Positions 230 to 63,948 of a stretch of 64,000 nt of DNA are shown here, in pieces. This stretch comes from Escherichia phage T4. Positions within the stretch are counted from its first letter, which is position 1. Each line of letters begins with the position of its first letter. The translations under genes and the position numbers were made by a program. The notes under the pieces are model-generated. The model saw nothing but the letters and a program-made list of their open reading frames with translations, ran no database searches and was not told the origin of the DNA. The stretch is taken from the sequence record OL964735.1; one strand, given 5' to 3'.

Positions 230-259
230 ATTATACCACATCCTTGTGGTAAAGTAAAC
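230..259 (-). promoter_or_regulatory. T4-type early promoter (minus strand -35 GTTTAC at 254-259, 18-nt spacer, -10 TATAAT at 230-235)
   Basis: Exact match to recurring GTTTAC-18-TATAAT architecture; upstream of the 1-204 ORF. Confidence 0.7.
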
Positions 260-791
260 TACTGGCTCATCCATTCTTTACGAAGGTCAGCATTATCTCC
301 CATGAGCATTTCAAAAAGCTCTTTCCAGTTCTCAGGAAGTTTAACAACATCATATACTGGGTTTTGAATCATCTCACGATATTCAGATTTTTCCAAAGAG
401 CCAAGTCCCTTAATATAACGGATGCTATGTTTAGGTAGAGCATCTTTGGCACTCTCATATTCAGCGACTGTATAAAACCATTCTTGTTTTTTACCGACCT
501 GAGCGATGATTACAGGAGTTTTGACAAAGCGAATTCGTCCTTGCTCAAACAATTCTGGCCAATTACTAAAAAATCCGAGCAGAGAAGGATAAATAGAACC
601 TAATCCAATAATCTCTTAATTATGAGGTATTTCTATAGATAGCCCGAAGGCTATCCATCGTGATCTGCGTCTGTCATAATAGCGACATTCGCATAGTTCA
701 TTGAAGAGGATTTAATAGAACGACGAACATTGTTCTGCAATTTATATTTTTTCATATCAACGCTAGAAGAATCAATTTTTACAAATTTCAT
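259..791 (-). CDS. 60: DNA topoisomerase II subunit gp60, translated through a 50-nt ribosomal bypass (codons 1-46 at 654-791, coding gap 604-653, codons 47-160 at 259-603)
   Basis: N-terminal segment MKFVKIDSSSVDM...MTDADHDG ends in GGA followed by TAG (651-653); second segment LGSIYPSLLGFFSNWPELFEQGRIRF... resumes at UUA (601-603); both match recalled T4 gp60. Confidence 0.93.
604..653 (-). other. gene 60 translational bypass (hop) element: 50-nt untranslated coding gap with take-off GGA 654-656 and landing GGA 604-606
   Basis: Minus-strand sequence GGA UAG CCUUCGGGCUAUCUAUAGAAAUACCUCAUAAUUAAGAGAUUAUUGGA UUA read directly; contains the UUCG-loop hairpin right after the take-off codon. Confidence 0.93.
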
Positions 792-1590
792 TATACACCT
801 CATAGAACTTTTCATCAGGAATCCAACCGCGTTTAAATTCATTAAATGCTCGGCCGAATAATTTTGAATTCACAGTTATATTATTAACTGATTTCCATTT
901 AGCAACTCCCGTTCGTTTATAATGATCGGGGTCATATTTCGTGACGTACCATTCATATAAATTTGGTATTAATTTTACAGCCTCTGGATTTGTCGCTGAT
1001 TTATTATACCATGGTTTCGCTTTTTCAAGTTCAGCTGCTTTTGCAGTAGCAGCAACAGTATTTCCAATACCAACTAATTTTTCAGTTTTAATGCGTGGAT
1101 CATTAACATGAAGACGAAAAACTTCGCCCTTTTCATTTTTAAAGCATGTCATGCCTTTAATTCCAGGAAGCTTAACACCTTTATTAACACCGCACCATTC
1201 CTTTGGGTTAAATGATCCTTTAATTAATAAGGCGCATTTACCCGATTTAATACTTCTCATTAAAACTTTATCTTTCATAAAGTTTTTTGACCATTCAGAT
1301 ACTGCTCTTTGATGGTAAATTCTAGCAATTTCATATAATTTACTAGAACGTAAATATTTTTCAGTGTTTAACATTCTATTCATCGCATATGCCATTTCAC
1401 GATTACGATGAATTTTATATAGTAGAAAATGTGCTAAAAAGTGTTCACGAAAAGTCAGTTTCACCAAATTTTCTTTATCATCAGAACCTCCCATTGATCT
1501 TGGAAGGATATGATGAATTTCACCCTTAAATTTAGAAACGCGGGTTTTACCCCGCACTATTAAGTCATTATAGATTTTTTCGTAATTCAC
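772..1590 (-). CDS. mobA: HNH homing endonuclease MobA inserted between topoisomerase genes 39 and 60
   Basis: HNH motif EIHHILPRSMGGSDDKENLV; N-terminus MNYEKIYNDLI like other mob genes; first codon reads GTG; overlaps gene 39 end by 23 nt and gene 60 start by 20 nt. Confidence 0.8.
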   Translation of the reverse strand: MNYEKIYNDLIVRGKTRVSKFKGEIHHILPRSMGGSDDKENLVKLTFREHFLAHFLLYKIHRNREMAYAMNRMLNTEKYLRSSKLYEIARIYHQRAVSEWSKNFMKDKVLMRSIKSGKCALLIKGSFNPKEWCGVNKGVKLPGIKGMTCFKNEKGEVFRLHVNDPRIKTEKLVGIGNTVAATAKAAELEKAKPWYNKSATNPEAVKLIPNLYEWYVTKYDPDHYKRTGVAKWKSVNNITVNSKLFGRAFNEFKRGWIPDEKFYEVYNEICKN

Positions 1591-3118
1591 CTACTGTTAT
1601 CCATTTACCATTAATCTGTACTTCATCATTTTCATTTACGATAATTGTATCGCCATTTAGCTCGAAAGTAAACCACTCGCCATCTTCTTTTTCTTCAAAC
1701 GCTTTTTCACCGAGAACTAGACCAGTGATTGCGCAAATATCAAATAGTTCTTTGTTTTTAAGCATATCTGCATAAGACATACCCCAACTGTTGAGAACTT
1801 TACCACGCAATGGATAACCACCGTGAAGTTCTTTATCACGAACATCAATAAGATATCCGATAGCCGAATCACCCTCAGTCAAGAAAAGAGTAGTATCAGC
1901 ATCTTTACCGCAAAGATTCGCTTTGATATGTTTATGAACCTTAGCTTTAGAAGCCTTTTTAGCTGCTTTAGTTTCTGCTGCTTTTTCTGCCGCCAATTTA
2001 CGAGCCAAAGCAGCTTCAATAATCGGCATTAGAATTGCTTCATTATTTAGAATAGCACGTGAAATCTTTTTAGCATCAAGTTGAATATGACTACGAATTT
2101 CGCCAAATGGAGAAGTCAAACGCTCTTTAGTTTGAGAATCAAATCGCATGTTTTTCATATCACGAACAAACATAACGATAGTCAAACATTCTTTGACACG
2201 TGCTTTAGTCACATCAATTTTGAACTTACGTTTGATTTGTGGAATAAGGTCTTCACAAATATCATCCATAGCGCAGTCAATGTGATGGCCACCATTCTTA
2301 GTATGAATGTTATTGACGTATGTTAATTGACGAAAACCATCCGGTGAACGACCAACCGCAATAGAACAATTTTCTTGCTCTTGAACAATAGCATGTTCAT
2401 CATACTGCCGTGCATATTTCTTAAAATTGCCCTGAACCTTTTTACCATTAAAGGTAAATTGAATATCAGGATAAACTACAGCAAGTGTCTGGAGACGATC
2501 CAGTGTAATGTCAAGATAAACTTGGGACAGCTCATTAGTTTCAAATGACATAAAATCAGGAATGAAAGTAACACGAGTTCCTTTCCATTTTCCAGGAATA
2601 TCTTCCCATGATTTATTTTCCATGCCATTTGAACAACGAACTACAATATTATTTTGACCGTCGCCAGTTTCACCGACAAACATCACAGAAAAAATGTTTG
2701 TCAAACTAGAACCAACACCGTTCATACCGCCGGTGACGCGTTCTTTATCATCACCAAAGTTACCACCTGCTTTTGGAATAGTCCATGCGGCAACAGGACC
2801 AGGAATTTCTTCACCGGTAGGTGTTTTAACCATCGCTTGTGGAATACCGCGACCGTTATCTTCAACTGTTACTTGATTGTTTTTAATAGTAACATTAATT
2901 TTATTCGCGAATTTAAACTTAGTACGAATACCTTCATCTACTGAGTTATCGATAATTTCATCAATAAGCTTAACAAGACCAGGTACATACTGAACACTTT
3001 CCCATTTACCAAACATAAAGCGCTCATGCGTTTCATTAGCAGAAGAGCCAATGTACATGCCACTACGCTTTTTGATATGTTCAATATCGCTCAGAATTTT
3101 AATTTCATTCTTAATCAT
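1568..3118 (-). CDS. 39: DNA topoisomerase II large (ATPase, GyrB-like) subunit gp39, 516 aa
   Basis: Track ORF begins GTG-ATG; ATG at 3116-3118 gives MIKNEIKILSDIEHIKKRSGMYIGS, matching recalled T4 gp39 length and N-terminus. Confidence 0.92.
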   Translation of the reverse strand: MIKNEIKILSDIEHIKKRSGMYIGSSANETHERFMFGKWESVQYVPGLVKLIDEIIDNSVDEGIRTKFKFANKINVTIKNNQVTVEDNGRGIPQAMVKTPTGEEIPGPVAAWTIPKAGGNFGDDKERVTGGMNGVGSSLTNIFSVMFVGETGDGQNNIVVRCSNGMENKSWEDIPGKWKGTRVTFIPDFMSFETNELSQVYLDITLDRLQTLAVVYPDIQFTFNGKKVQGNFKKYARQYDEHAIVQEQENCSIAVGRSPDGFRQLTYVNNIHTKNGGHHIDCAMDDICEDLIPQIKRKFKIDVTKARVKECLTIVMFVRDMKNMRFDSQTKERLTSPFGEIRSHIQLDAKKISRAILNNEAILMPIIEAALARKLAAEKAAETKAAKKASKAKVHKHIKANLCGKDADTTLFLTEGDSAIGYLIDVRDKELHGGYPLRGKVLNSWGMSYADMLKNKELFDICAITGLVLGEKAFEEKEDGEWFTFELNGDTIIVNENDEVQINGKWITVGELRKNL

Positions 3119-42602: not shown

Positions 42603-43635
42603 CAATGTGTTCAGTAGAGTTCGCTACTTCTCTACCCGTTTATATGAAACAATGTAATTTGGATAATTGTCATCTAAACACAAATCTTTAATACGACTTG
42701 GGTGGAGTTTTAAATCTTTAGCAGCATCCACAAATGATTTATAGATATTGTCATTTATTTTAACATATTCTGGGACGGGATGAATTGTTATTTTTATATC
42801 TATAACATTTGGATGATTACTAACCTGTTCTTCAGAGCATTTAAGAAATTTTGCAGCTGATTTAAAACTTCTAAATTTATTTCCGGATTTTAAAGCTATA
42901 GAAACAGTCTTTTTAGCCGTTCTACTACCAATATTATTTTTAACATGAGCTTCACTTCTACTATTATTTTTATAATGCTCAATCAATTTCTCTCGTATCT
43001 TATCTTTATGTTTTAAAGATAAGATTTTACCTTTATGGGCATTACTAAGTTTTTGCTTATGTTCTTCTGAATCCGGATATTTGTTAAATTTATATCCACC
43101 TATAGATTTATTAAGAATAAATTCGTTATTAAAATATTTCCTAATAAGCATTTCTTCATGTTTAAGGGCCGATTCATAAGAATCAAAAACTTGAAGAATT
43201 ATCCACTTAGCTTTATAATCTTTAAGCTTTTCTTTAACAAGCTTAGATGACGAATTGTATTCTTTCCAATTTGTATCTTTACCATATATAGTTTTGAATT
43301 TTTTAAAACCTATATAAAAAGACTTATCAGGAAATCTTACCATATAGGTAAATGCTACAGAATTGGCAATTTTTAAGCTTTTTCTTAATTTCCATTTCAT
43401 CGTTTCACCTCGTATTCATATTTATACGAGGATAAACAGCTGCATGTCACCATGCAGTTCAGACTATATCTTCAACTCTTAGAGTTGTCTGCCGTTTCGG
43501 GTCGCTTGACCCTACTCCCTTACATTCATCAGGGATAGTCGTTGGGCATTTACAGCTACTGCTGATTTAGCAACGGATTGTCTCAGTGAGAGTTTCCCGT
43601 TTTAGGCAGATTTTACATGAGCTTGACTTACGTTA
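42603..43635 (-). mobile_element. group I self-splicing intron in nrdD (1033 nt) carrying the I-TevII ORF
   Basis: 5' exon ends in U (43636), intron ends in G (42603); the 1033-nt length and restored frame match the known T4 nrdD (sunY) intron. Confidence 0.85.
42624..43400 (-). CDS. I-TevII: intron-encoded GIY-YIG homing endonuclease I-TevII, 258 aa
   Basis: Entirely inside the nrdD intron; GIY-YIG-like motifs (FTYMVRF ... SFYIGF). Confidence 0.85.
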   Translation of the reverse strand: MKWKLRKSLKIANSVAFTYMVRFPDKSFYIGFKKFKTIYGKDTNWKEYNSSSKLVKEKLKDYKAKWIILQVFDSYESALKHEEMLIRKYFNNEFILNKSIGGYKFNKYPDSEEHKQKLSNAHKGKILSLKHKDKIREKLIEHYKNNSRSEAHVKNNIGSRTAKKTVSIALKSGNKFRSFKSAAKFLKCSEEQVSNHPNVIDIKITIHPVPEYVKINDNIYKSFVDAAKDLKLHPSRIKDLCLDDNYPNYIVSYKRVEK

Positions 43636-44173
43636 ACTCATAAGCTTGGAATGCATCGTATACGTCTTTTTCTGTTTTAGATTGAGCATAATTCAACGCA
43701 TCAGCGATTTGCCATTTTTCTGCATCCTCAATATGTTTTGCATAGGTGCGTTTAACATAAGGAGAAAGTACTTTATCTACATTCGCAAAAGTCGTTCCGC
43801 CGTATTGGTGAGAAGCAACTTGCGCAGTAATTTGTGCCATAATTGCAGTAGCAACTCCAATTGATTTAGGAGTTTCAATCTGCGCATTACCAAGCTTAAA
43901 TCCGTTTTCAAGCATTCCTTTTAAATATACTAAACAGCAATTAGTAAATGGAAGAGCAGGGGAATAATCAATATCATGCACGTGAATAATTCCGCTTTCA
44001 TGCGCTTTCATAATAAAAGACGGGACCATATTTTTGGCAATGTGTTTAGACACAATACCAGCCATAAGGTCCCGTTGAGTTGGAAAAACACGAGAATCTT
44101 TATTAGCATTCTCGTTTAAAAGGTCTTTATTAGTTTTATGAATTAATCCTTCAATTTCTTTTTCAATTGTCAT
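43636..44173 (-). CDS. nrdD: anaerobic ribonucleotide reductase NrdD, exon 1 (codons 1-179 plus first base of codon 180)
   Basis: N-terminus MTIEKEIEGLIHKTNKDLLNENANKD...; the ORF would hit a stop 2 codons into the intron. Confidence 0.85.
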
Positions 44174-45514: not shown

Positions 45515-45717
45515 TTTTCACACCACCAACTGCTTACTTCAAAATCGGGTTCGCCATGTTCCCAGAACCAGGGGCCGATAGGAATCCACTTACCTTCATC
45601 GGTGACGTCATATTCTTCGGATTTAGCTAACCAAATCATGTATTCATAGAGTTTATATTCCAGGTCGCCTTCTGTTCCATCGCCTAGAAAAATAATTTGT
45701 TCATTTAATTCTATCAT
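45511..45717 (-). CDS. hypothetical small protein (68 aa)
   Basis: ORF in track; ATGA overlaps on both sides. Confidence 0.5.
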   Translation of the reverse strand: MIELNEQIIFLGDGTEGDLEYKLYEYMIWLAKSEEYDVTDEGKWIPIGPWFWEHGEPDFEVSSWWCEK

Positions 45718-49589: not shown

Positions 49590-50504
49590 TTAAGATTTAA
49601 GTAAATCAACAATTTTAATTAACTTTTCACGCTCAGATTTAGCTTTACTACTCAATCCAGATAGTCTGAAAATTTCATCATCATATTGTTGAATAGAAAT
49701 ATTCAGCTCTTCAATTTGCTTATTAAAATAATCAATTTGTTCAGAATGTTTTTCGTTACTACGAACTGGTACAGGTTTTGTAGGCAATTTAGTTGAACTG
49801 GATTCATTCGGGCGATAAATTAAAATGCAATTTGAACCAATCGGGCATTTAGCACCAGATGAATATTCTAACGTTCCAGCTTCTTTTAAAACTTCAAAAG
49901 CTAAACAGAGATGATGCCCCATATTAACATAATCAGTAGAGCGAGCTCTGATGTAATAATCATCTCCACGAGTGCTAAATTTAAAGCATTTAAGGTCTTC
50001 TGTATTATTAGTTTTAAAAATCATTTGTTTATCTAGACCTTTAGCCAATCGAGCACCTAATGCTAATAATCGTCGTTGATTTTCCCACAAATCTGCGATC
50101 ATTTGGTCAAATGATAATTTCGGCATTAGCCGACCATAAAGGTCATATCCTTTATTATAATTGCGAAGGATTTCACTCGCATTAATACGAGACAACGCTC
50201 CAATTTTATTAAGGGCTTTCATAATACGATTAGATAAACTCATTCCAGACCCGTTTGTTCGCTGTAAATGTTTTTCTAATCCAAATCCAATATCAACTTT
50301 AAATTTATCTAAAATTTCAGCATGAACATCTCTGTCAATAACATTCAAATCCAAAGTTGGGTTAAATCTATGAAAAAATTTATCTGGCTCTCCACGACGT
50401 AAAACAGTCCATTCATTCATCATTTTTTTATTAACTAAAGATTTAATTACTGCGTTGACATTATTAATTACTACTGACATATTTTCCTCACTCAATTTTA
50501 CCAA
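49590..50504 (-). CDS. hypothetical protein (304 aa), paralog family member
   Basis: Shared motif LWENQRRLLALGARLAKG; C-terminal coiled coil. Confidence 0.6.
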   Translation of the reverse strand: MVKLSEENMSVVINNVNAVIKSLVNKKMMNEWTVLRRGEPDKFFHRFNPTLDLNVIDRDVHAEILDKFKVDIGFGLEKHLQRTNGSGMSLSNRIMKALNKIGALSRINASEILRNYNKGYDLYGRLMPKLSFDQMIADLWENQRRLLALGARLAKGLDKQMIFKTNNTEDLKCFKFSTRGDDYYIRARSTDYVNMGHHLCLAFEVLKEAGTLEYSSGAKCPIGSNCILIYRPNESSSTKLPTKPVPVRSNEKHSEQIDYFNKQIEELNISIQQYDDEIFRLSGLSSKAKSEREKLIKIVDLLKS

Positions 50505-50889
50505 TTACGCGGAATAAGATTGAACAGACTATATAAGTACCACATATAGATTGAACTAATGCCATTCCAAAGAACCAAACAATATTATCAAACCATGTCT
50601 GTTTTACGTCGAAAGGACGTAAACTTACAGTAATATTATCACCTTTTTCTATTGAAGAATACATCTCTGGGGAAATATATTCACTAAATCTATAACCGTC
50701 TTTGAGTTCATATACAGCAATAAACGATAAACTAGACCCCTTTCCTTGAGTTCCTGTAAGGGTATTAACTACAGTAACATCATAATCTTTATAATGCATA
50801 TAATCATTAATTGCGTAATAACCATATGCAATTACTATACATAAACAACATATCAATAAATTCAATCTTTTAATTATCAACTGTTTCAT
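50488..50889 (-). CDS. hypothetical membrane protein (133 aa)
   Basis: N- and C-terminal hydrophobic segments. Confidence 0.55.
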   Translation of the reverse strand: MKQLIIKRLNLLICCLCIVIAYGYYAINDYMHYKDYDVTVVNTLTGTQGKGSSLSFIAVYELKDGYRFSEYISPEMYSSIEKGDNITVSLRPFDVKQTWFDNIVWFFGMALVQSICGTYIVCSILFRVIGKIE

Positions 50890-50944
50890 AATAATCTCAA
50901 TTAAAAGGGCTTAGAACCATTATACCATCCTTGGTATAAAGCGG

Positions 50945-51472
50945 TTATGCGAGTACCGTATTTAACCGTTCTTCAAACTTCCGAAGAGTGTTCTGGCGTT
51001 CAGCTCTTTGCTTTTTGTAAGTTTCAATACGCTCTGAAATGAGAGTGTATCGTTCATTTACTGATTCTTTCATAAAATCAGGAATTTCACGAGAAGCTTT
51101 AATCTCGTCAAATTTATCAATAACAGCTTGCTCTTCAGCAATTAAGTTATCATACATCAAAATATCTTTCTTGATGAACTCAATATCTTCTTGAGTTACA
51201 CGAGATAATTTAGATGCTTTATCCTTTTTGTACTGTTCGTTAGTATCACGAGACCAGTGTAATGTACGATTTTTATTCGTATTCTTGTAAATTTCTACAA
51301 TACCAATCTCATCGATAATAACGATCCAATTCCAACGGGATTTGTAAATTTGTCCTCCATTAACAGTGATTTCACCTCCGATTGAGATGTCATTAAAGAA
51401 CTTGCTTTGTGCTTCTGATTTAAATTTACCATCGTTGTAATTTACCAGGTTGAAAATATCTTTAGCGTTCAT
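50945..51472 (-). CDS. hypothetical protein (175 aa from ATG at 51472)
   Basis: ATG MNAKDIFNLV... with SD GGAGG; track start lies inside promoter 51501-51530. Confidence 0.55.
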   Translation of the reverse strand: MNAKDIFNLVNYNDGKFKSEAQSKFFNDISIGGEITVNGGQIYKSRWNWIVIIDEIGIVEIYKNTNKNRTLHWSRDTNEQYKKDKASKLSRVTQEDIEFIKKDILMYDNLIAEEQAVIDKFDEIKASREIPDFMKESVNERYTLISERIETYKKQRAERQNTLRKFEERLNTVLA

Positions 51473-51500
51473 TTTGTGTTCCTCCGTAGTTGATAGTTGT

Positions 51501-51530
51501 ATAGTACCACAGAGGAACGGTCTTGTAAAC
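51501..51530 (-). promoter_or_regulatory. T4-type early promoter (-35 GTTTAC 51525-51530, -10 TACTAT 51501-51506)
   Basis: Anchored between the ATG at 51472 and the stop at 51533. Confidence 0.7.
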
Positions 51531-51532
51531 AA

Positions 51533-51847
51533 CTAAAAGAAACTTCTTTCACAATTTTTTCCACTGAACCAAGCGCTCACTGCTTTCTTAGTTTCAGGAG
51601 CAGTGTTATCCATAAACCATTCAAAGGCAGCCTTTTTATGATTCTGGAGGGCTTCTCGGGCTTTAATCTGCTCACGGTCTATTAACACTAACATATGAGC
51701 CTTTCTTGTCACCAGGGGCTTCTTATGATTTTTTGAATACTCCCAATCATTTGTCCATCGCATCGTTGTTGCGAATTGAAATACAGCTTCTTTAATCTTA
51801 GTTTCGTAAATTTCACGAGCCTTTGAGTATAACATCATTACCTCCAT
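51533..51847 (-). CDS. hypothetical protein (104 aa)
   Basis: ORF in track. Confidence 0.5.
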   Translation of the reverse strand: MEVMMLYSKAREIYETKIKEAVFQFATTMRWTNDWEYSKNHKKPLVTRKAHMLVLIDREQIKAREALQNHKKAAFEWFMDNTAPETKKAVSAWFSGKNCERSFF

Positions 51848-51937
51848 TTACCAGTTTAATTCTAGTCATCTTTTTGATGGCAGTCCATATAATCTATTTC
51901 TGAACTGCCTTTTTGTCTTAGAAGGCCTCTTATGAAT

Positions 51938-52906
51938 TTATTTCAGAAGAGTAACCGTAGCGATTTCTTCCCAACCGTTTTTGTCGGTCATAATAAAGTC
52001 AGCAAGATAAAGTGCAGTACGCAGTGAAACATTACGTAAACGGTTAACATTGACTTTCATCCATGATAATGCTTTATAAGTTTCTTCATCAGAAAGACCA
52101 CGCTTTTGCATCATGTCGGTTGAAAGAATAACATCTTCAACCCTGACCATAATTTCTTCATTAGTGTGAACACCCAAATCCAAATAAACTGAGCGGGACA
52201 CTAATGCTTGTAAATGTGGAGCAAGTTTAGTACCACGGTCTAATTCGCGGTCAATGTCAACGTTTGTGATAAAAACAATTGTTCCTTTAAATTCAAACTC
52301 ACGCTCAATGCCTTTTTCTTCTAAGTAAGAAGATGCAGTGCTCCAGCAGACTTTACGGGTCTCTCCAGTGTCCAGAGCAGCTTTCAGAAGATTAAGAATG
52401 TCCATATCAGAGAAAACATCCACATCATCAATCAAAAGGACAGAATTCTCTTCACGATTATTCCAAAGCTGTTCATAAAGACCGATACCAGAGATTTTAC
52501 CGTTAATGCTTTTATACTCAATGTATCCAATATCATTTGCTTTATTCAAAGCTTTATCTAAAGAATATGTTTTACCAATACCCGCCGCACCAGAGATAAT
52601 TAATGAACGAATATTTCCGTTAATAATACCATTCGTCATCATTCCCATAACATTAAATCTTTTATTAATGCGGGTTTTCATATCTTCATATGATTCTTTA
52701 ACTTCTTCAACTTTTACACCATCATATGAAATGTCTGATTTGTAAACCCAAACACCGCGACGTTTACCGTCAATTTCAACAAAAACTTTACCATCTCCTT
52801 GTGCATCTACCGGAGCATTATCAGGGAACCATTCACCTAAGAGCTCAAAAGTTCCAGAGATTTCTTTACCGAAGTAGATACCCTTATTGATAGTTACAGT
52901 TTTCAT
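51938..52906 (-). CDS. P-loop NTPase of unknown function (322 aa from ATG at 52906)
   Basis: Walker A GAAGIGKTYS and Walker B LLIDDVD; ATG MKTVTINKG... with SD GGAG; track start is TTG. Confidence 0.65.
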   Translation of the reverse strand: MKTVTINKGIYFGKEISGTFELLGEWFPDNAPVDAQGDGKVFVEIDGKRRGVWVYKSDISYDGVKVEEVKESYEDMKTRINKRFNVMGMMTNGIINGNIRSLIISGAAGIGKTYSLDKALNKANDIGYIEYKSINGKISGIGLYEQLWNNREENSVLLIDDVDVFSDMDILNLLKAALDTGETRKVCWSTASSYLEEKGIEREFEFKGTIVFITNVDIDRELDRGTKLAPHLQALVSRSVYLDLGVHTNEEIMVRVEDVILSTDMMQKRGLSDEETYKALSWMKVNVNRLRNVSLRTALYLADFIMTDKNGWEEIATVTLLK

Positions 52907-52940
52907 TTTATTCTCCAAATCCGTATCAGTTGATAGTTGT

Positions 52941-52970
52941 ATAGTACCATAAAGCTTTATGCTTGTAAAC
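52941..52970 (-). promoter_or_regulatory. T4-type early promoter (-35 GTTTAC 52965-52970, -10 TACTAT 52941-52946)
   Basis: Anchored between the ATG at 52906 and the stop at 53021. Confidence 0.7.
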
Positions 52971-53000
52971 CGTTTTGTGAAAAAATTTTGAAATAAAAAA

Positions 53001-53018
53001 GGGAGCCCGAAGGCTCCC
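53001..53018 (-). terminator. Rho-independent terminator after the 53021 ORF
   Basis: Stem GGGAGCC / GGCTCCC with CGAA loop, followed on the transcript by UUUUUUAUUU. Confidence 0.8.
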
Positions 53019-53020
53019 TA

Positions 53021-54067
53021 TCATTTATAATAACTTCGATGGTTTTCAAGATAAACCCTCTCAAGGAAGTCATCCCAGAAACTCATGTCTACTTTTTGCT
53101 GCATACCGTTCTTAGAAGCTTCAGTAGATGCTGCTTCTACTTGATCGACCACATCTTCCAAAAACTCTTGAACGGTTTTAAATGGATGCTTACCCAACTT
53201 CACGTCGAGAATAAATGGAGCATCTTGGAGTGGATAAACCAAGTCACCAGTTTTGTAAATTTCCAATAGTTGAAGTCCACCACGACAAGCATGGCTCAGA
53301 GCTTTCCAGTCAATGCCTTCATTGGCTTCGGCCTTACGAGCACGTTCGCCGTATTCAGCATCTAATTTGTTCAGTGACTGCTTAAGCTCAATAAGAGAAA
53401 GCGTTGTCTGATATTTACGACCCAACACTGTGTAAAACGTTTGTGGGCCTGTTTTCTCATGATTATGGAACACCCATTCACAGAATTCGTTTTCTGGAAG
53501 ACGATGCTTAATATCTTCAACTTTAGTACGACGCTGCTTAATGGAACCATCTTCTTGGTAATCAACCCATTGCTCAGGGATTTGATTAACTACTTTCAAT
53601 ACATCGCGTAATGCAGCCAAACGAGAACCCTTGACGCCGTATTTAGAAGCTTGCTTGCGGACATATCCTAAATATGATTTCATGTTAGTCGTATAAAAAC
53701 GAGAACGGTTGTCTTGAATAAACTTCCACACATCAGGCAAATCGGATTTAACCACTAGTTCAGGTGGAGTGTGGAGCATATCCAATGCTACAGTTTCACC
53801 ATCTGCTGCTAATTTAAAGAAATACTTAAGACTATACAATTCGTGGTCAATATCATCTTTAGTGTTTTTAGATGATGTGTTGTTGGTATTTTTACTCATG
53901 TGCTCTTTGACGTTTCCAATAAGAATATCGCGAGCAGGAGGAACAAAGATTTCTTTAAAATCTACATCAGATTCTGGAGTAGAAGTTCCATAAAGATGAC
54001 TACCAAAATAAGACTTAACTACAGTTTTCATTATTAGACCTTTCATAATCTTCATTAAATTGTACAA
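53021..54067 (-). CDS. nucleotidyltransferase-fold protein of unknown function (up to 348 aa; probable ATG start at 54031)
   Basis: N-terminal motif GSHLYGTSTPESDVDF fits the Pol-beta-type NTase signature G[GS]x9-13DxD. Confidence 0.6.
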   Translation of the reverse strand: MYNLMKIMKGLIMKTVVKSYFGSHLYGTSTPESDVDFKEIFVPPARDILIGNVKEHMSKNTNNTSSKNTKDDIDHELYSLKYFFKLAADGETVALDMLHTPPELVVKSDLPDVWKFIQDNRSRFYTTNMKSYLGYVRKQASKYGVKGSRLAALRDVLKVVNQIPEQWVDYQEDGSIKQRRTKVEDIKHRLPENEFCEWVFHNHEKTGPQTFYTVLGRKYQTTLSLIELKQSLNKLDAEYGERARKAEANEGIDWKALSHACRGGLQLLEIYKTGDLVYPLQDAPFILDVKLGKHPFKTVQEFLEDVVDQVEAASTEASKNGMQQKVDMSFWDDFLERVYLENHRSYYK

Positions 54068-54794
54068 TCAATCGATGATAATTAGATTTTGGATATCCTA
54101 ATTTACTTATATAAGTTCCGAATGACCCACGTTTAGGTCTATTTAATTTAATCCATAACTTATAAAGTAAGTCATAGTCTTGCCAATGTTTACCAGTTCT
54201 TTGTCTAATTTTAGATGAATTTGATTGTTTCTTTTTAGTTTCAAAATTATTCAAAGATTTTTTGACTGCAGCAGAGTGTTTTTCTTTAACTCCCGGTCGT
54301 TTAAAAGCAGCTTTCACCCCTTTAGATATTTTTTCTTTAACTTCCGGTTTGTTTTGTGCTTCTAACTGGGATTCTGAAATTTTAGCCCTTATTTCAGGAA
54401 GACTTAATGTTATCGAACGTTTTTCTCTGTATTCATTAGACTTCCACATTTCTTTCATTGTATTAGAATGTATTTTTGAAAATTTTTCTCTAACTAACTG
54501 ATATCCTCTTGAAGTTAATTTGAGATTTCTTCCTAAAGAATCTTCTCCAAAATTATAAAATGACCACCATGCATAAATTAATCCAGGCGAATTGTAATGA
54601 ATTTTAGCTAAAAGCCAATGGGCTATAAAATGCTCTCTAGCTGTTAATAAAACTAGATTATCAGAATCATCATTACCACCAATACAAGATGGAATAATAT
54701 GATGCTTTTCCGTATAAAAATTTAATTTAGATTTATCTAATTTTCTGAGTTTTCCTTTCTTAATTAAATTATTATATACTTTAGTATAATTCAT
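54015..54794 (-). CDS. mobD: HNH homing endonuclease MobD, 259 aa
   Basis: N-terminus MNYTKVYNNLIKKGK and HNH motif HHIIPSCIGGNDDSDNLV. Confidence 0.8.
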   Translation of the reverse strand: MNYTKVYNNLIKKGKLRKLDKSKLNFYTEKHHIIPSCIGGNDDSDNLVLLTAREHFIAHWLLAKIHYNSPGLIYAWWSFYNFGEDSLGRNLKLTSRGYQLVREKFSKIHSNTMKEMWKSNEYREKRSITLSLPEIRAKISESQLEAQNKPEVKEKISKGVKAAFKRPGVKEKHSAAVKKSLNNFETKKKQSNSSKIRQRTGKHWQDYDLLYKLWIKLNRPKRGSFGTYISKLGYPKSNYHRLIVQFNEDYERSNNENCS

Positions 54795-54868
54795 TGGTTC
54801 TTCGTCTCATTTAATTTTGCTTTGCATTTATAACACATGTCTGTTCCACTTGAAATAAACATATTTCC

Positions 54869-55414
54869 TCACTTTGAAATCATAGTTGGAATAACAGAAT
54901 CAAGATAAGTCTTTAGTGCAATAGCTTCGTCTTTGTTTAATGTAATGATATGTGATCGAAAATCATCAATTTGACGAATAGATACTACATCTCCCTCTTC
55001 ATAGCATTTTGAAACATTTAAAATAGTTTCATCATTCTGATTACAGGAGTTAGTAATAATAGCATTACATTTTTTAAACCATTTTAAATTATGTTTTCTT
55101 TTAGTAGAATCATAAAAATATTTAATGTTAGTTATAAAATTATCCCAATTATTAATTGATAAGCACATTGACTCGCTTTTAATATTAAATCCTGGGCATG
55201 AAGAATAAAAATGAATTTTATGCTCATCATTAATGCTTACAATTTTATCAGTGTAAGCATATTCAATTTGGGTTAAACGAACAATTTCGCTAGGCGTAAA
55301 ATATAACATGTCATCTTCTTGCGTCAAACGATACATGTTATTTACTTTTTCTATAGCCAATTCACCAAAAAGTGGACTAACTTCTAATACTAGTCGTTTC
55401 GCCTCGCTCATCAT
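54869..55414 (-). CDS. hypothetical protein (181 aa; positional mobD.1)
   Basis: ORF in track; ATG at 55412-55414. Confidence 0.55.
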   Translation of the reverse strand: MMSEAKRLVLEVSPLFGELAIEKVNNMYRLTQEDDMLYFTPSEIVRLTQIEYAYTDKIVSINDEHKIHFYSSCPGFNIKSESMCLSINNWDNFITNIKYFYDSTKRKHNLKWFKKCNAIITNSCNQNDETILNVSKCYEEGDVVSIRQIDDFRSHIITLNKDEAIALKTYLDSVIPTMISK

Positions 55415-55518
55415 TACATACTCCTCTGAATCATATTAATAATGTTATTCACCAGATTATAAGTAAACATTGGGTAATTATATTGAATCATCACATATAT
55501 AACAAACAAAACTTTCAT
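55414..55518 (-). CDS. hypothetical 34-aa hydrophobic peptide, first ORF of the early transcript from promoter 55547-55576
   Basis: Hand translation MKVLFVIYVMIQYNYPMFTYNLVNNIINMIQRSM; SD AAGGAG 6 nt upstream; TAATG overlap with the next ORF. Confidence 0.4.
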   Translation of the reverse strand: MKVLFVIYVMIQYNYPMFTYNLVNNIINMIQRSM

Positions 55519-55546
55519 TCTCTTCTCCTTGGCAGTTGACAAGATT

Positions 55547-55576
55547 ACTATACCATAATCTTGTCAACTTGTAAAC
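55547..55576 (-). promoter_or_regulatory. T4-type early promoter (-35 GTTTAC 55571-55576, -10 TATAGT 55547-55552)
   Basis: Inverted repeat TTGACAAGATT/AATCTTGTCAA flanks the -10. Confidence 0.7.
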
Positions 55577-55578
55577 CA

Positions 55579-55752
55579 TTAAATGACGTTTTCGATAAAA
55601 TTTTGAAGCTTTGTATGAGCATCAACCATGATTTTCATTTCTTCCTTGGCAAAAGCTGTGCCTCTTTCCCGAGAAGAACATTCATAGTCAGAAACTGCAT
55701 TAGCATATTCTTCAATTAGCTTCATTAAAAACATCTGTTTTTCAGTTTTCAT
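55579..55752 (-). CDS. hypothetical 57-aa protein, member of small helical paralog family
   Basis: Hand translation MKTEKQMFLMKLIEEYANAVSDYECSSRERGTAFAKEEMKIMVDAHTKLQNFIENVI; SD AGGTGGA. Confidence 0.5.
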   Translation of the reverse strand: MKTEKQMFLMKLIEEYANAVSDYECSSRERGTAFAKEEMKIMVDAHTKLQNFIENVI

Positions 55753-55936
55753 TATTCCACCTAATCATTTCAAGATATTGAACTAACTTAGCTTTGGATT
55801 TATCCAAATCCCTTTTAGCTGCTTCTATACCGTCGTATGAATATCCTTCACAATGCTCAACTGCTAATTGATATGAATCTATTTCAATATCATGCGCTAA
55901 TTTAATGATTTTTTCAAACTGTTCGCGTGTTAGCAT
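55742..55936 (-). CDS. hypothetical 64-aa protein, member of small helical paralog family
   Basis: ORF in track; MLTREQFEKIIKLAHDIE... Confidence 0.55.
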   Translation of the reverse strand: MLTREQFEKIIKLAHDIEIDSYQLAVEHCEGYSYDGIEAAKRDLDKSKAKLVQYLEMIRWNNEN

Positions 55937-55938
55937 AC

Positions 55939-56121
55939 TTAAACTCTCGTATTATGATCGATAATTTCATCAAGAAACATATCTAACGCTTCTACAGCAT
56001 TATTAACTTTAGCTTCAAATTCTTCAATACCTGATAAGGCAAAGTTAATGCGTTCCTCATCTGCTTTACGAATTAAAGCTACCAATTCCTTAATTTTATC
56101 CGCTTGTTCGATACTAATCAT
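55939..56121 (-). CDS. hypothetical 60-aa protein, member of small helical paralog family
   Basis: [19 protein letters not shown]... chosen over the upstream track start. Confidence 0.5.
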   Translation of the reverse strand: MISIEQADKIKELVALIRKADEERINFALSGIEEFEAKVNNAVEALDMFLDEIIDHNTRV

Positions 56122-56309
56122 TATTCCACCACATATGAAAGAGAGAATATTGCACACGCCATGTGAGTTGCAACTTCATCACACATATTATAACGTTTCT
56201 TAAGAAGTTCTACAAGTTCTTCACTAGTAACTTCATCCATGTCGACGAAAAAATCACCATTAATGATGACGTAGATATTTCCTTCTTGATTGAGTGCTTC
56301 AATTTTCAT
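56121..56309 (-). CDS. hypothetical 62-aa acidic protein
   Basis: Track ORF starts at TTG inside promoter 56338-56367; first ATG ([10 protein letters not shown]...) has SD GAGGAG 6 nt upstream. Confidence 0.5.
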
Positions 56310-56337
56310 GATGTTCTCCTCTTTATCCGATGGTTGT

Positions 56338-56367
56338 ATAGTACCACAGCTCAAACGGAAAGTAAAC
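56338..56367 (-). promoter_or_regulatory. T4-type early promoter (-35 GTTTAC 56362-56367, -10 TACTAT 56338-56343)
   Basis: Anchored between the ATG at 56309 and the stop at 56406. Confidence 0.7.
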
Positions 56368-56384
56368 CGGTAAAATGAAAAAAA

Positions 56385-56400
56385 GTCTCCCGAAGGAGAC
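56385..56400 (-). terminator. Rho-independent terminator after the 56406 ORF
   Basis: Stem GTCTCC / GGAGAC with CGAA loop, followed on the transcript by UUUUUUU. Confidence 0.8.
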
Positions 56401-56405
56401 TAATG

Positions 56406-56792
56406 TTATTCGAGGGAAAGAAGATACTTACTCTGGTAAAACATTCCAGTAATATCATCTATCGTGCTTTGGATGGCTGGAGGCATTTCTTTATAAATGC
56501 TGTTAGATTGGTCTAGTATGCGATCAATCATTTTAATTGTGTCGGTAGGAAGTTTACTGGCATCTGGAATTGAAGGCGTGTATTTTCGACCAGAATACCC
56601 CAAATATTGCTCACCAAATTTATCAATCAAATCTGGCAACTCGGAAAAAATAAAATCGTATGCTTTGTGTCTAGCATAACTTTTAGTTTCAAAATGTGCA
56701 GAATGAAAATAAGCTTGTGCAGCCATTAATAAACCTAAGTATTCATCTGCCTTTGAAGGTTTTCCACTTTGTGAAAAGTCGCTGAATTTCAT
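56406..56792 (-). CDS. hypothetical protein (128 aa)
   Basis: ORF in track; ATGA overlap with rI. Confidence 0.55.
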   Translation of the reverse strand: MKFSDFSQSGKPSKADEYLGLLMAAQAYFHSAHFETKSYARHKAYDFIFSELPDLIDKFGEQYLGYSGRKYTPSIPDASKLPTDTIKMIDRILDQSNSIYKEMPPAIQSTIDDITGMFYQSKYLLSLE

Positions 56793-57082
56793 TCAGTCTC
56801 CAATTTAATGTTCATAATTCTAGCGTATGATTGTGCCATCTCCGCGCCTCGCTCTATACATTCAAAATCAGAAGAGCACGGGTCATTTTTATAGGTCGTT
56901 CTCATAAAACTATAGAATTGTTCAGACGATTCTACGCTTTTATTTTCAAAAAGCATATAAACGTGCCTAATACCAGATTCCATAAATTTATCAAAATGAG
57001 GATCGACATTCGCTTCAATCGATGGAGATAAAACAAATGACAATCCTAGCATGGCAAAAAGTGCTGTTGCTTTTAAGGCCAT
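56789..57082 (-). CDS. rI: RI lysis-inhibition antiholin, 97 aa
   Basis: Sequence MALKATALFAMLGLSFVLSPSIEANVDPHFDKF... with signal-anchor matches recalled T4 RI. Confidence 0.9.
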   Translation of the reverse strand: MALKATALFAMLGLSFVLSPSIEANVDPHFDKFMESGIRHVYMLFENKSVESSEQFYSFMRTTYKNDPCSSDFECIERGAEMAQSYARIMNIKLETE

Positions 57083-57094
57083 AAAGGCCTCCTA

Positions 57095-57307
57095 TCATTT
57101 TTGTCCTGTATTTACTTTGTGCCGATGCACGGCCTTAACTTTATCAAGGTATTTTTCAAAATTTCGCAATCTAGTATAGTCTGCCGGAGATTGGTTGAGT
57201 GATACTTCTCGACGCAAAGCTGAAATGATATTTCCAACTTCCCTACGAATTTCATCTAATTGAAGAACAGTAAGATTGCGAAGTTGCTTTTCAGTTAATT
57301 GTAGCAT
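57095..57307 (-). CDS. hypothetical small protein (70 aa; positional rI.1)
   Basis: ORF in track. Confidence 0.5.
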
Positions 57308-57349
57308 ATATACCCCTTTAGTTAGATAAACCTATTTATAACTTTTGCA

Positions 57350-57931
57350 CTAACCGAGCTTTTTAGTTAATTCATTCCAATGTTTTCTACACAAAGAAAC
57401 ATAAATTTCATCACCAATACAAATTTGATTACCTTCTTTAACTGGTGTTCCATCTTCCATTAATCGAGCTGTCATAATCGCTTTTTTACCACAATGACAA
57501 ACTGCTTTTAGTTCAATAAGTTTATCTGCAATCGCTAAAAGTTCTTTAGAACCTTCAAATAATTTTCCAGCGAAATCAGTCCTTAGCCCATAAGCCATAA
57601 CAGGAACATTATATGTATCAACAATTCGGCTCAATTGATGCACCTGTTCAGTTTTTAAAAACTGAGCTTCATCTACAAATACGCAATGAATATCTTTTTG
57701 TGCTTCAGCCCATTTATAGAACTCGAAAATATCCATATCATCTGTAATAATATTCGCTTCCTGCTTAATTCCAATGCGAGAAACGACTTCACAGACAGAA
57801 TCGCGAGTATCAATAGCAGGCTTAAGAACTAATACACTCATTCCACGTTCTTTATAATTATGTGCAGCAGTCAAAAGAGAAGCAGATTTTCCAGCATTCA
57901 TTGCTGCATAAGTAAAAATTAAACTCGCCAT
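57350..57931 (-). CDS. tk: thymidine kinase, 193 aa
   Basis: P-loop AAMNAGKSASLL and Zn-ribbon CxxC...CxxH at the C-terminus; matches T4 Tk. Confidence 0.92.
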   Translation of the reverse strand: MASLIFTYAAMNAGKSASLLTAAHNYKERGMSVLVLKPAIDTRDSVCEVVSRIGIKQEANIITDDMDIFEFYKWAEAQKDIHCVFVDEAQFLKTEQVHQLSRIVDTYNVPVMAYGLRTDFAGKLFEGSKELLAIADKLIELKAVCHCGKKAIMTARLMEDGTPVKEGNQICIGDEIYVSLCRKHWNELTKKLG

Positions 57932-57932
57932 C

Positions 57933-58121
57933 TTAGTCCTTAGTTAAATTTTCTAAATATGTTTCTAAATCATTTTCAGCTTTATCGATAGATTTTACTA
58001 ATTCGTAATATGTTTCGGCATCTCCATATTCAGAAGATATTTCAAAAGACAAATCCTTTTCTAAACTAATAATTTCACCAACTAAAAATAATATTTCGTT
58101 CTTTTGTTCGCGAGTAATCAT
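57933..58121 (-). CDS. hypothetical 62-aa protein, member of small helical paralog family
   Basis: MITREQKNEILFLVGEI... Confidence 0.55.
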   Translation of the reverse strand: MITREQKNEILFLVGEIISLEKDLSFEISSEYGDAETYYELVKSIDKAENDLETYLENLTKD

Positions 58122-58309
58122 AAGGAATTTATATAATCAATGAGTTCTTGTTCTTTATTATCGAATTCTTTAGAAAGTTCTTCGTACTCGTTTGCGCTAA
58201 AAGGACCGCATTCATTACAAACTTTTTCCAATTCACTATTTTTATCCATAACTTCGTGGATAAGAGAAAAGAGTGTGTCTTTTTGTTCTTTGCTTAAACT
58301 CATAACCAT
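58118..58309 (-). CDS. hypothetical 63-aa protein, member of small helical paralog family
   Basis: M..SLSKEQKDTLFSLIHEV...; ATGA overlap with the previous ORF. Confidence 0.55.
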   Translation of the reverse strand: MVMSLSKEQKDTLFSLIHEVMDKNSELEKVCNECGPFSANEYEELSKEFDNKEQELIDYINSL

Positions 58310-58527
58310 GTCACCTTTAAGCAGTATTCTTCTACATGCTGTTTACGACCTTTCTTATCAATAAAGGTATATTCAACGAATGTTCCAATGTAGTCTTTAT
58401 CTACATCATGTGGACTATTAATTGGACATTTAGTGCGACAAATGCGTTCCCATTGACGAATAATTACTGCCTTATTCTTTGGGTCATATGGATGTGGATA
58501 ATGTATATTCATAATAATGGTTCCCAA
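58300..58527 (-). CDS. hypothetical small protein (75 aa)
   Basis: ORF in track. Confidence 0.5.
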   Translation of the reverse strand: MGTIIMNIHYPHPYDPKNKAVIIRQWERICRTKCPINSPHDVDKDYIGTFVEYTFIDKKGRKQHVEEYCLKVTWL

Positions 58528-58976
58528 TCAACAATCACAATTTCTAATTTAGAGGAATATGTATCTAAAATCCCCTCAATAATATCCCAGTTCCCTTTAC
58601 CTATGCCTGCACCAATCCTAGGCATATAGATTGTAGGTTTAATCAGTTTATTTTCACCAAACTCATTTAATTCTAACATACAATTCATTAAAGCGGAATA
58701 CTCAAAATTTGGCCCTGGTTGAAATTGAGTATAAAGATTGAAGCAGTAAGCTTTATGAGTCCTAAAGTATTTTTCATAGACTGAGTAAGAACCGAGTTTA
58801 GTTACATCACCCCATTCAGTCTGTAATTTATCAGCTTCCAAAATTTTAGGGAAAGCTTTGGTTAATTGACCCGCTACGCCTGAACCCATAGTATGAAAAC
58901 AATTACATCCATGTGCAATATTTTTACCTTCAGCGAAAAGGGCGACAATATCGCCCTTGATATATTTTACAATCAT
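58509..58976 (-). CDS. macro-domain-like protein (155 aa), putative ADP-ribose binding/hydrolase
   Basis: N-terminal KGDIVALFAEGKNIAHGCNCFHTMGSGVAGQL resembles the macro-domain GDI...AAN...GGGV.GAI signature. Confidence 0.55.
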   Translation of the reverse strand: MIVKYIKGDIVALFAEGKNIAHGCNCFHTMGSGVAGQLTKAFPKILEADKLQTEWGDVTKLGSYSVYEKYFRTHKAYCFNLYTQFQPGPNFEYSALMNCMLELNEFGENKLIKPTIYMPRIGAGIGKGNWDIIEGILDTYSSKLEIVIVDWEPLL

Positions 58977-59320
58977 CTAGTACTCAATCCTCGATTATAA
59001 GAATCTACCAAACGGTCAACCATTGAATGACAAGCGGCTTTATCTTTCTCCTCCGCAACTGAACATTCTAAGGTATTCCACTTTTTAGCATATCGTTTTA
59101 ACAATGTATCGTTTTTGTATCTGCTTGATTTATCTCTTTCTCCGTCTTTATATGCATATATTAATTTCTGTGCAAATTCAGCTTGGCATGCCTTATTTTT
59201 CCCACAATAATCTGCCGCAGTGCGGTTTACATATTCTCTAATTTCAGTATATGATGTATCTGCTGACGCAGAAGCAGAAAATGAAATTAATCCTATACAT
59301 AAAACCAAAATTTTAGTCAT
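58973..59320 (-). CDS. secreted small protein (115 aa) with signal peptide and 4 Cys
   Basis: Signal peptide MTKILVLCIGLISFSASASA; ATGA overlap with neighbours. Confidence 0.55.
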   Translation of the reverse strand: MTKILVLCIGLISFSASASADTSYTEIREYVNRTAADYCGKNKACQAEFAQKLIYAYKDGERDKSSRYKNDTLLKRYAKKWNTLECSVAEEKDKAACHSMVDRLVDSYNRGLSTR

Positions 59321-59858
59321 TTACTATTTCCAAAAGTTTATTATTTTTAAGGTAATTAGCCTTTTCTAGGACTTCAGAAGCATATTTAGAACCTGCTTTA
59401 ACATTCCATCCCGAATTATAAGAGGATATTGCTTTTCTTATATCGCCCTTATGTATATTTAACCAATAAGAAAGTTCAATGTACGCCCAGGAAGCTGAAT
59501 TGGATCGTTTATTCAACATTCTTTTTATTTCAGCATCGGTCATATTATAACCAAGTTCCTTAACTCTTGCTCGCATAGTAGGCAAATAATTTTGGAACAT
59601 TCCGTAGGCGTGATGCTTTGGTTTAGATTTTAAATTAACTCCGCCAGAGCTTTCTTGCCATAAAATGGCAGCCATTATATGACCTAATCCGCTCTTGTGG
59701 ATATTTTTGTGTGTTTTATATTTTCCATCCTTAGAAAATTGTTCCCCGAATTGATACGCGTAACGCATGTTATCGAGTTGGACATTACTGAAAGTATGCT
59801 CGGAGCTATGTGCCATCATTGAAATGGCCAATAGACCAGCGAGTAGTGCTTTTCTCAT
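59313..59858 (-). CDS. periplasmic soluble lytic transglycosylase (SLT)-like protein, 181 aa
   Basis: Signal peptide MRKALLAGLLAISMMAHS; SLT motifs ES (LWQESSG), GMFQ, SYNSG. Confidence 0.7.
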   Translation of the reverse strand: MRKALLAGLLAISMMAHSSEHTFSNVQLDNMRYAYQFGEQFSKDGKYKTHKNIHKSGLGHIMAAILWQESSGGVNLKSKPKHHAYGMFQNYLPTMRARVKELGYNMTDAEIKRMLNKRSNSASWAYIELSYWLNIHKGDIRKAISSYNSGWNVKAGSKYASEVLEKANYLKNNKLLEIVND

Positions 59859-59865
59859 GCTTACC

Positions 59866-60327: not shown

Positions 60328-60354
60328 GTTATTCTCCTCTTAACTGATAGAAAA

Positions 60355-60384
60355 ATTATACCACAGTCAAGAGGAAAAGTAAAC
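60355..60384 (-). promoter_or_regulatory. T4-type early promoter for regB (-35 GTTTAC 60379-60384, -10 TATAAT 60355-60360)
   Basis: Anchored between the regB ATG and the stop at 60387. Confidence 0.75.
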
Positions 60385-60386
60385 AG

Positions 60387-61507: not shown

Positions 61508-61514
61508 ATAAACC

Positions 61515-62491: not shown

Positions 62492-62517
62492 ATAATCATG
62501 AGGTCCAGGTTGTTCCC

Positions 62518-63894: not shown

Positions 63895-63948
63895 ATGTTT
63901 CCTTTAAATTATTTTAATTAGTAATTGTCTATTCAAGTAATTGTGAAT

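Follow-up and report, generated by a model that had tools for sequence, protein, structure and literature searches.

The programmed translational bypass of bacteriophage T4 gene 60 in sequence record OL964735.1

Genes 39, mobA and 60 in the window

We analyzed a stretch of 64,000 nucleotides of Escherichia phage T4 (OL964735.1), which is called the window in this report and is numbered from 5' to 3' along the given strand. Gene 60 is located near the beginning of the window on the minus strand, where it runs from 791 to 259 as a joined CDS, and its neighbor on the same strand is rIIA.1 (1-204). Gene 39, which encodes the N-terminal part of the large subunit of topoisomerase II, occupies 1568..3118 of the minus strand, as seen from the Pfam matches HATPase_c and DNA_gyraseB and from the T4T annotation. 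The product of gene 39 contains the ATPase and the beginning of TOPRIM, and the mobA insertion has added about 43 amino acids to its C terminus.

The mobA gene (772..1590, minus strand) lies between genes 39 and 60 and overlaps the 3' end of the former as well as the 5' end of the latter. It is an intact ORF for an HNH homing endonuclease of 272 amino acids and is annotated as MobA in T4T. The Pfam HNH match of the product is weak (E = 7e-4, below the curated cut-off). The role of mobA as a mobile cassette has been described (PMC7026636; bioRxiv 2022.08.31.505936), and, as quoted by later papers from Bonocora et al. (2011), the 50-nt gap of gene 60 makes the gene resistant to MobA. The nearby ORFs on the plus strand are short (39 and 43 amino acids), and none of them extends across the bypass element.

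The mobA ORF is intact here and in all modern T4 sequences, but it is annotated as a pseudogene in the older T4 reference AF158101 (1990s-2003). Compared with the window, AF158101 has 11 scattered single-base insertions and 5 substitutions, all of which are found within 1068-1474. The pseudogene status of mobA in AF158101 therefore looks like a sequencing artefact.

Reading frames, signals and RNA structures of the bypass element

The first ORF of gene 60 (654..791, minus strand) starts with the ATG at 791-789 and contains codons 1-46, which encode MKFVKIDSSSVDMKKYKLQNNVRRSIKSSSMNYANVAIMTDADHDG. Codon 46 is the take-off codon GGA for Gly46 (654..656), as read from the letters and from the T4 annotation. 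It is immediately followed by UAG (651..653), which forms the first three nucleotides of the coding gap. The gap skipped by the ribosome is 50 nt long (604..653) and corresponds to the misc_feature at 2803-2852 in HM137666 and AF158101. Besides the UAG, it contains a hidden GGG (645-643, that is, nucleotides 9-11 of the gap), a second UAG, the motif UAAuUAA, and an AU-rich 3' part. The landing codon, at which the peptidyl-tRNA-Gly pairs again, is the GGA at 604..606. The trinucleotide GAG at 613..615, to which the literature assigns the role of a mini-Shine-Dalgarno sequence, lies in AU-rich surroundings upstream of the landing codon, with 6 nt between the two (GAG, AUUAUU, GGA). Decoding resumes at UUA for Leu47 (601..603), and Gly and Leu are contiguous in the uninterrupted homologues. 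The reading of the minus strand is therefore ...GAU GGA UAG CCUUCGGGCUAUCUAUAGAAAUACCUCAUAAUUAAGAGAUUAUU GGA UUA GGU....

The initial annotation had placed the take-off GGA, the UAG, the landing GGA and the UUA at these same positions, and all four were exact on the minus strand. It had also described a gap of 47 nt. That value holds for the spacing between the matched GGA codons (656-654 and 606-604), that is, the UAG plus 44 nt, but the canonical coding gap is the 50 nt of 604-653.

The second ORF (259..603, minus strand) contains codons 47-160 and the stop codon. It matches Pfam TOPRIM_C and covers what remains of TOPRIM together with the associated C-terminal domain. Since the gap is 50 nt, ORF2 is in a different frame from ORF1. 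We looked for a contiguous in-frame ORF starting at 791, which the initial annotation had named as the observation that would speak against a bypass, and none was present: frame 0 has stops at codons 47, 54 and 64. In addition, the frame of ORF2 is closed on its upstream side, where a UAA lies four codons away from the landing GGA. When 791-654 is joined to 603-259, a product of 160 amino acids (46 + 114) is obtained, and its junction is ...DADHDG/LGSIYPSLL....

The take-off codon is part of an RNA hairpin. In the core of this hairpin, 656-649 pairs with 644-637 around a UUCG tetraloop (648-645), and the take-off codon is contained in the 5' arm. The core, GGAUAGCC-UUCG-GGCUAUCU, folds with an energy of -12.2 kcal/mol (z = -3.9), and the take-off hairpin with a UUCG loop that had been reported in the gap is present. 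The extended take-off stem-loop (633..660, minus strand), which is supported by folding and by natural variants, has an energy of -14.7 kcal/mol (z = -5.0). A 5' stem-loop (666..693, minus strand; -10.1 kcal/mol, z = -3.2) ends 9 nt before the take-off GGA, and this agrees with its published position.

A helix is also predicted for the 3' stem-loop (538..589, minus strand), the barrier against forward slippage. It begins at the published site, 14 nt downstream of the landing codon, and its sequence is identical to that of T4. The folding energy of this stem-loop was not distinguishable from that of shuffled sequences (z = -0.9), and the same was true of the shorter sub-window 550-592.

ORF1 also encodes the nascent peptide KKYK...SSS. 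The bypass signal defined in the literature, KKYKLQNNVRRSIKSSS, corresponds to codons 14-30 (702..752, minus strand), and the residues that contact the exit tunnel, namely Y16, Q19, V22, R24, Y33, M39, T40 and H44, are all present. The functional element is larger than 604-656: it extends from about 752, in the codons for the nascent-peptide signal, to about 538 in the 3' stem-loop.

The only match obtained by the Rfam search of the window was the group I intron of nrdD at 43440-43671. No Rfam family covers the bypass element, and the search therefore gave no independent model-based match for it. This search also bears on the idea that a small intron or RNA editing eliminates the 50 nt before translation, which would then be contiguous. 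T4 does have self-splicing introns, including the one of nrdD in this window, and genes of homing endonucleases frequently occur together with introns. However, although the nrdD intron was found, neither an intron nor another RNA family was detected by Rfam at 604-653, and the core of a group I or group II intron needs far more than 50 nt. Moreover, mRNA containing the gap was used for in vitro translation and cryo-EM, and according to the literature the gap sequence persists in the mRNA. We consider removal of the gap at the RNA level to be scarcely conceivable.

Comparison with T4, undivided homologues and natural variants

A query of 1501 nt spanning gene 39, mobA and gene 60 was 100% identical to T4T, RB55, RB59 and several resequenced T4 genomes (a T4T coordinate equals the window coordinate plus 2199). 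In HM137666 and AF158101, gene 60 is annotated as a two-piece joined CDS with a "non-coding translational bypass region in mRNA" at 2803-2852. There were no differences between gene 60 of the window and that of AF158101, which departs from the window only outside the gene, at the adjoining mobA. The DNA, the annotation coordinates and the protein are all identical to those of the T4 gene 60 bypass described by Huang et al. (1988) and Weiss et al. (1990).

All 160 residues of the joined product, including those encoded by ORF2, were identical to gp60 as contained in the gp39-gp60 chain of the T4 topoisomerase II structure PDB 8yo3, and the assignment of the two encoded halves to gp60 was thereby upheld. 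The product of ORF1 was identical at 46 of 46 residues to the nascent chain (chain C) of PDB 5np6, which is the structure of a ribosome stalled at the take-off site with the nascent peptide (PMC5462505). Furthermore, the alignment of residues 27-160 of gp60 with the undivided large subunit of PDB 8ylu, which is the T6 enzyme (PMC11461880), spans the junction and has no gaps.

For the comparison with undivided genes, we used two T4-like phages, G4507 and JLBYU31. Residues 1-473 of the 605-aa subunit of G4507 were 99% identical to residues 2-474 of gp39, and its residues 472-605 were 96% identical to residues 27-160 of gp60 with 0 gaps. The DNA of the undivided phages reads GAT GGT TTA/CTA GGA AGC ATT TAT. 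Compared with these homologues, the T4 DNA has a clean insertion of 50 nt at the boundary of the Gly and Leu codons, and the block 604-653 is absent as an exact block from both G4507 and JLBYU31. The last 43 or so amino acids of gp39 and the first 26 or so of gp60 have no counterpart in the undivided homologues. These unmatched extensions fit the published picture of extensions carried in by a mobile cassette.

These data can be set against the possibility that the locus consists of two independent genes, one for a 46-aa peptide ending at the UAG and the other for a separate C-terminal protein starting, for example, at the TTG at 552. Automatic annotation does give two CDSs in OL964745 (651-791 and 259-552), GRNsp7, G50, ELT1 and S16, and the ORF list of the window gives the same two fragments. 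In addition, release of the 46-aa product by roughly half of the ribosomes is described in the literature. However, the frame of ORF2 contains no ATG, GTG or TTG between the upstream UAA and the TTG at 552. A start at this TTG would remove LGSIYPSLLGFFSNWPE, a conserved stretch of 17 residues that directly adjoins DADHDG in the uninterrupted homologues. No promoter-like site was found between the two ORFs, and the hairpin is not terminator-like. In addition, the whole TOPRIM region is present in neither half, and the solved enzyme has the joined sequence (PMC11461880). Protein sequencing and mass spectrometry of the T4 product are cited in the literature as having shown the junction peptide, which contradicts two separate genes. 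Two separate genes are therefore highly improbable. The TTG at 552 is an artefact of automatic ORF calling, and the true start of ORF2 is the UUA at 603.

From the joined annotation and the identities to the structures, it follows that separately called ORF fragments such as those of OL964745 are one gene. The initial annotation had drawn the same conclusion for the two fragments in the window, and the curated joined CDS, the identities to 8yo3 and 5np6 and the gapless alignment with the T6 enzyme all agree with it. The element identifies the window as phage T4, and the practical use of this result is a correction of the gene track to one joined CDS (791..654, 603..259). The error recurs, since two CDSs or a "frameshift" are annotated in many records of phages that carry the cassette.

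We then consider the distribution of the element in nature. In the GenBank phage set, homology to this part of the topoisomerase gene was found at the DNA level in 1034 records. In most of them, the homology begins only at the landing site, and the bypass cassette itself was found in only 52 records. When the identity to the 69-nt element of the window was calculated, it was at least 99% in 28 records, 95-99% (1-2 changes) in 13 records, and 80-90% in 11 records, namely 5 Proteus phages, 5 Salmonella S16-like phages and 1 Escherichia phage.

The MobA-cassette elements of HY01, G50, ELT1, Proteus PM2, SJ_PmiM and Salmonella S16 have the same insertion site in the gene of the topoisomerase large subunit. 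Like the element of T4, they possess the UAG after the take-off codon, the CC-UUCG-GG hairpin, the GAG before the landing codon, and mobA upstream. In the alignment of seven variants with the window, the UAG, the CC-UUCG-GG tip and the GAG were invariant. The elements of G50 and HY01 differ from that of T4 by 1-2 substitutions, which strengthen the stem. The matched codons also vary: the T4 group uses GGA for both take-off and landing, whereas the pair is GGG/GGA in the Proteus phages and GGU/GGC in S16. The gap lengths obtained by alignment were 48, 50 and 51 nt. Such lengths are hard to reconcile with triplet decoding of the gap, and they fit a hop.

The stem of the take-off hairpin is conserved through these changes. 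In the pair A654-U639, which includes the third position of the take-off codon, the two bases change together and appear as A-U, G-C and U-A. Over the 12 pairs of the stem, 96% of the cells were paired, compared with 21-42% when the partner was slid by 1-3 columns, in a small sample of 7 distinct sequences with one doubly changed pair. The shuffle control was passed moderately, that is, 9 of 500 shuffles reached the observed score. This pattern of variants agrees with the survey by Manning and Atkins (bioRxiv 2022.08.31.505936).

We also used the hairpin core TAGCCTTCGGGCTA as a probe in IMG/VR. It matched at least 120 stretches, and no relative of gp60 was found by tblastn among the matches listed. 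Because phage DNA frequently contains this palindromic CUUCGG hairpin, TAGCCTTCGGGCTA is unusable as a probe. The more specific probe GAYGGNTAGCCTTCGGGCTA was found in one contig only, and IMG/VR yielded nothing that the GenBank phage set had not already given.

The question of chance was considered with two descriptions of the element. The bare skeleton GGATAG-N44-GGA occurs once in the 64-kb window, compared with 0.19 occurrences expected, and at least one occurrence was obtained in 19 of 100 shuffles. With such an expectation, the skeleton alone is weak proof. The full 56-nt element is present as a single copy in the window, and 0 copies are expected by chance even when 3 mismatches are allowed. 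The decisive argument is the identity to the known element and not the statistics of the bare skeleton.

The chance expectation of the skeleton could be taken in favor of a disrupted pseudogene or an error of sequencing or assembly, that is, of a 50-nt insertion with a stop that arose by chance in a dead gene, and the older T4 reference does have errors of the sequencing type in the adjoining mobA. However, the element is identical in 28 independently deposited records, and it is conserved with compensatory changes in the stem among phages of Escherichia, Salmonella and Proteus. Both ORF1 and ORF2 are intact and clearly conserved at the protein level, and the differences from AF158101 are confined to mobA, with none in gene 60. 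The chance that the gap is a defect of the gene or of the sequence is practically negligible.

Mechanism of the bypass and related systems

We therefore regard it as practically certain that the window contains bacteriophage T4 gene 60 and that the programmed translational bypass of this gene is unaltered. No sequence evidence against a gene 60 bypass was found. The present analysis provides the identity to T4, the location of the signals at their published positions, the folding potential, the colinearity of the joined product and the covariation of the hairpin; the bypass itself, its efficiency and the mechanics of the ribosome come from the literature on the identical sequence. The synthesis of a single polypeptide across the gap by ribosomes, and not by RNA processing, is experimentally established for this sequence, as cited in the literature (Huang 1988, Weiss 1990, Samatova 2014, Agirrezabala 2017). 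The mechanism can be considered from PMC5462505, PMC7026636, bioRxiv 2022.08.31.505936 and bioRxiv 2024.12.09.627546 as follows.

Codons 1-46 are translated first, and the nascent peptide with its signal KKYK...SSS grips the exit tunnel. It has been reported that translation slows while the KKYK motif passes the constriction of the tunnel (PMC5462505, PMC7026636 and both bioRxiv preprints), and that the nascent chain anchors the peptidyl-tRNA-Gly and keeps the peptidyl transferase center inactive at take-off (the same papers, including PMC5462505). Once GGA occupies the P site and UAG the A site, the UUCG-capped top of the hairpin forms within the A site and blocks the release factor and near-cognate tRNAs. 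The short A-site hairpin is described as excluding release factor 1 and near-cognate tRNAs (mechanism papers, including PMC5462505).

The peptidyl-tRNA-Gly then leaves its pairing with GGA and is retained in the ribosome. The unpairing of the anticodon at take-off takes place with an efficiency of nearly 100% (mechanism papers, including PMC7026636). EF-G and GTP drive the hyper-rotated ribosome across the 50 nt, and this movement is aided by the 5' and extended stem-loops refolding behind the ribosome. The forward slide of the hyper-rotated ribosome is reported to depend on EF-G and GTP, with about 90 GTP hydrolyzed, and ribosomes drop off at about 1% per nucleotide (mechanism papers, including PMC7026636). 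From this drop-off, an overall bypass efficiency of about 50% at 37 C is explained. After landing, decoding restarts at UUA (mechanism papers, including PMC7026636). About half of the ribosomes thus finish the hop and produce the 160-aa gp60, which forms the T4 topoisomerase II together with gp39 and gp52. Both the 50-nt gap and the split of the gene come from the mobA homing-endonuclease cassette.

In recent preprints, it is raised as a speculation that the bypass has a regulatory role or that the 46-aa peptide has a function. The efficiency of about 50% and its strong temperature dependence might tune the amount of gp60, so that the bypass would also be a regulator and not merely a tolerated scar of mobA. 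No evidence for this reading is added by the window, and we think it very unlikely.

These results confirm that the bypass of gene 60 in the window is real, had been interpreted correctly and was already known; no new biology follows from it. The initial annotation had itself called it established biology, and it is indeed the original, fully characterized T4 gene 60 bypass. Gene 60 was the first example of one protein being made although the ribosome passes over a long part of the mRNA, and it is still the best studied. It also illustrates how a selfish homing-endonuclease cassette can reside within an essential gene.

The 'byp' elements in the mitochondria of Magnusiomyces yeasts (Lang et al. 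2014) are comparable, as judged from the literature. Like gene 60, they have matched codons, a take-off hairpin and a slow codon in the A site, and one protein is produced from a discontinuous frame. However, their sequence and origin are unrelated to those of the T4 element: they are GC-cluster-like inserts of 27-55 nt that are present in 81 copies in many genes. Their A-site codon is a sense codon without a tRNA rather than a stop codon, and they are described as involving no homing endonuclease cassette.

Programmed ribosomal frameshifting and short 'stop hopping' also resemble the gene 60 bypass, because the peptidyl-tRNA unpairs and pairs again on the same mRNA within one ribosome, and because mRNA structure and a slow codon in the A site promote these events. 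In contrast to gene 60, the re-pairing occurs at an overlapping or adjacent codon and not 47 nt away, and there is no EF-G-driven slide over a long non-coding gap.

Several observations were made on other parts of the window. No tRNA genes were found in it. Compared with T4T, the window has three deletions of about 100 bp each, located in gene 49.2, in gene 49.3, and at the start of denV and the stop of ipII. The deletions in 49.2 and 49.3 are shared with no other record in the phage collection. According to local BLAST, OL964745.1 is without the three deletions of the window and has other deletions.

Natural variants and annotation of the bypass element

We determined the gap lengths of the bypass variants by alignment, and the element was found to vary both in the length of its gap and in its hairpin. 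In Salmonella phage GRNsp7, one added T is placed between GAG and the landing GGA, giving a gap of 51 nt and a spacing of 7 (about 251-320 of the locus, L130). The gap of the Proteus phages (L133 and SJ_PmiM) is also 51 nt, with the codons GGG/GGA, and that of the S16-like phages is 48 nt, with the codons GGU/GGC. In G50, HY01, and ELT1, a U-to-C change converts the closing G-U pair of the hairpin to G-C. A further A-to-U change, present in HY01 and ELT1, abolishes the second in-gap UAG and at the same time adds a G-U pair to the extended stem.

We also looked for the hairpin core, that is, the core of the UUCG-capped take-off stem-loop, in IMG/VR. The combination of Asp-Gly-UAG followed by the core occurred in a single contig, IMGVR_UViG_2706795719_000001. 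The bare core, TAGCCTTCGGGCTA, was found in at least 120 unrelated viral contigs, so that, outside the bypass context, this hairpin is a motif common among phages.

The annotation of gene 60 in deposited genomes was as follows. Many genomes bearing the cassette have no joined CDS for gene 60; it is split into two separate CDSs, labeled a hypothetical protein, or given a frameshift note. The records showing such a split or mislabeled gene 60 were OL964745, GRNsp7, G50, ELT1, S16, and SJ_PmiM. Annotation error at the gene 60 recoding site is recurrent.

mobA and the nrdD intron

The HNH endonuclease ORF of the cassette, mobA (772-1590), is intact in the window and encodes 272 aa. The same intact ORF is shared by the window, the comparison genome T4T, RB55, and several resequenced T4 genomes (100% identity with a 1.5-kb query). 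In the older T4 reference, AF158101/NC_000866, this position is annotated as a pseudogene plus a gene '60.1'. Compared with the window, the reference carries 11 single-base insertions, scattered and mostly of G, along with 5 substitutions; every one of these differences lies inside mobA (window 1068-1474). With this pattern, the 'pseudogene' of AF158101 looks less like a genuine one than like the product of misread bases on old gels.

An Rfam search of the whole window gave no match other than a group I intron (RF00028; 43440-43671, minus strand; 105 bits). T4T coordinates identify it as the intron of nrdD (sunY) and the adjoining ORF, at 42624-43400 on the minus strand, as the intron endonuclease I-TevII.

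Origin of the window and its differences from T4T

Two records titled 'Mutant Escherichia phage T4 clone', OL964745.1 and MZ375356.1, begin at the same base as the window, whose left end coincides with the rIIA.1 stop codon. The deletions of OL964745.1, the one of these records that was compared, are not present in the window, and for this reason the window probably derives from a sibling T4 derivative.

Comparison with T4T revealed three deletions. The first, of 100 bp at 45359/45360, shifts the frame of gene 49.2 and creates a new C-terminus, ...QYRLNWLSFENV. The second, of 102 bp at about 45615-45625, is in frame in gene 49.3, removes 34 aa, and is flanked by CTTC..ATTTAG microhomology. Both are absent from every T4 record of the phage collection. 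The third, of exactly 100 bp at 62897/62898 (T4T 65299-65398), takes out the stop codon of ipII together with the region upstream of denV and the initial 37 nt of that gene; ipII thereby gains LTNT at its end, and the only start remaining to denV is an internal one (121 aa). The round size of the deletions, 100 bp, suggests that they arose by engineering or data handling and are not natural variants.

Single-base differences from T4T were found at five positions in the first 45 kb (5222, 13484, 22220, 38450, and 43927), and one further difference lies within 49599-62897. In addition, a single T is inserted at 63909, upstream of ipIII.
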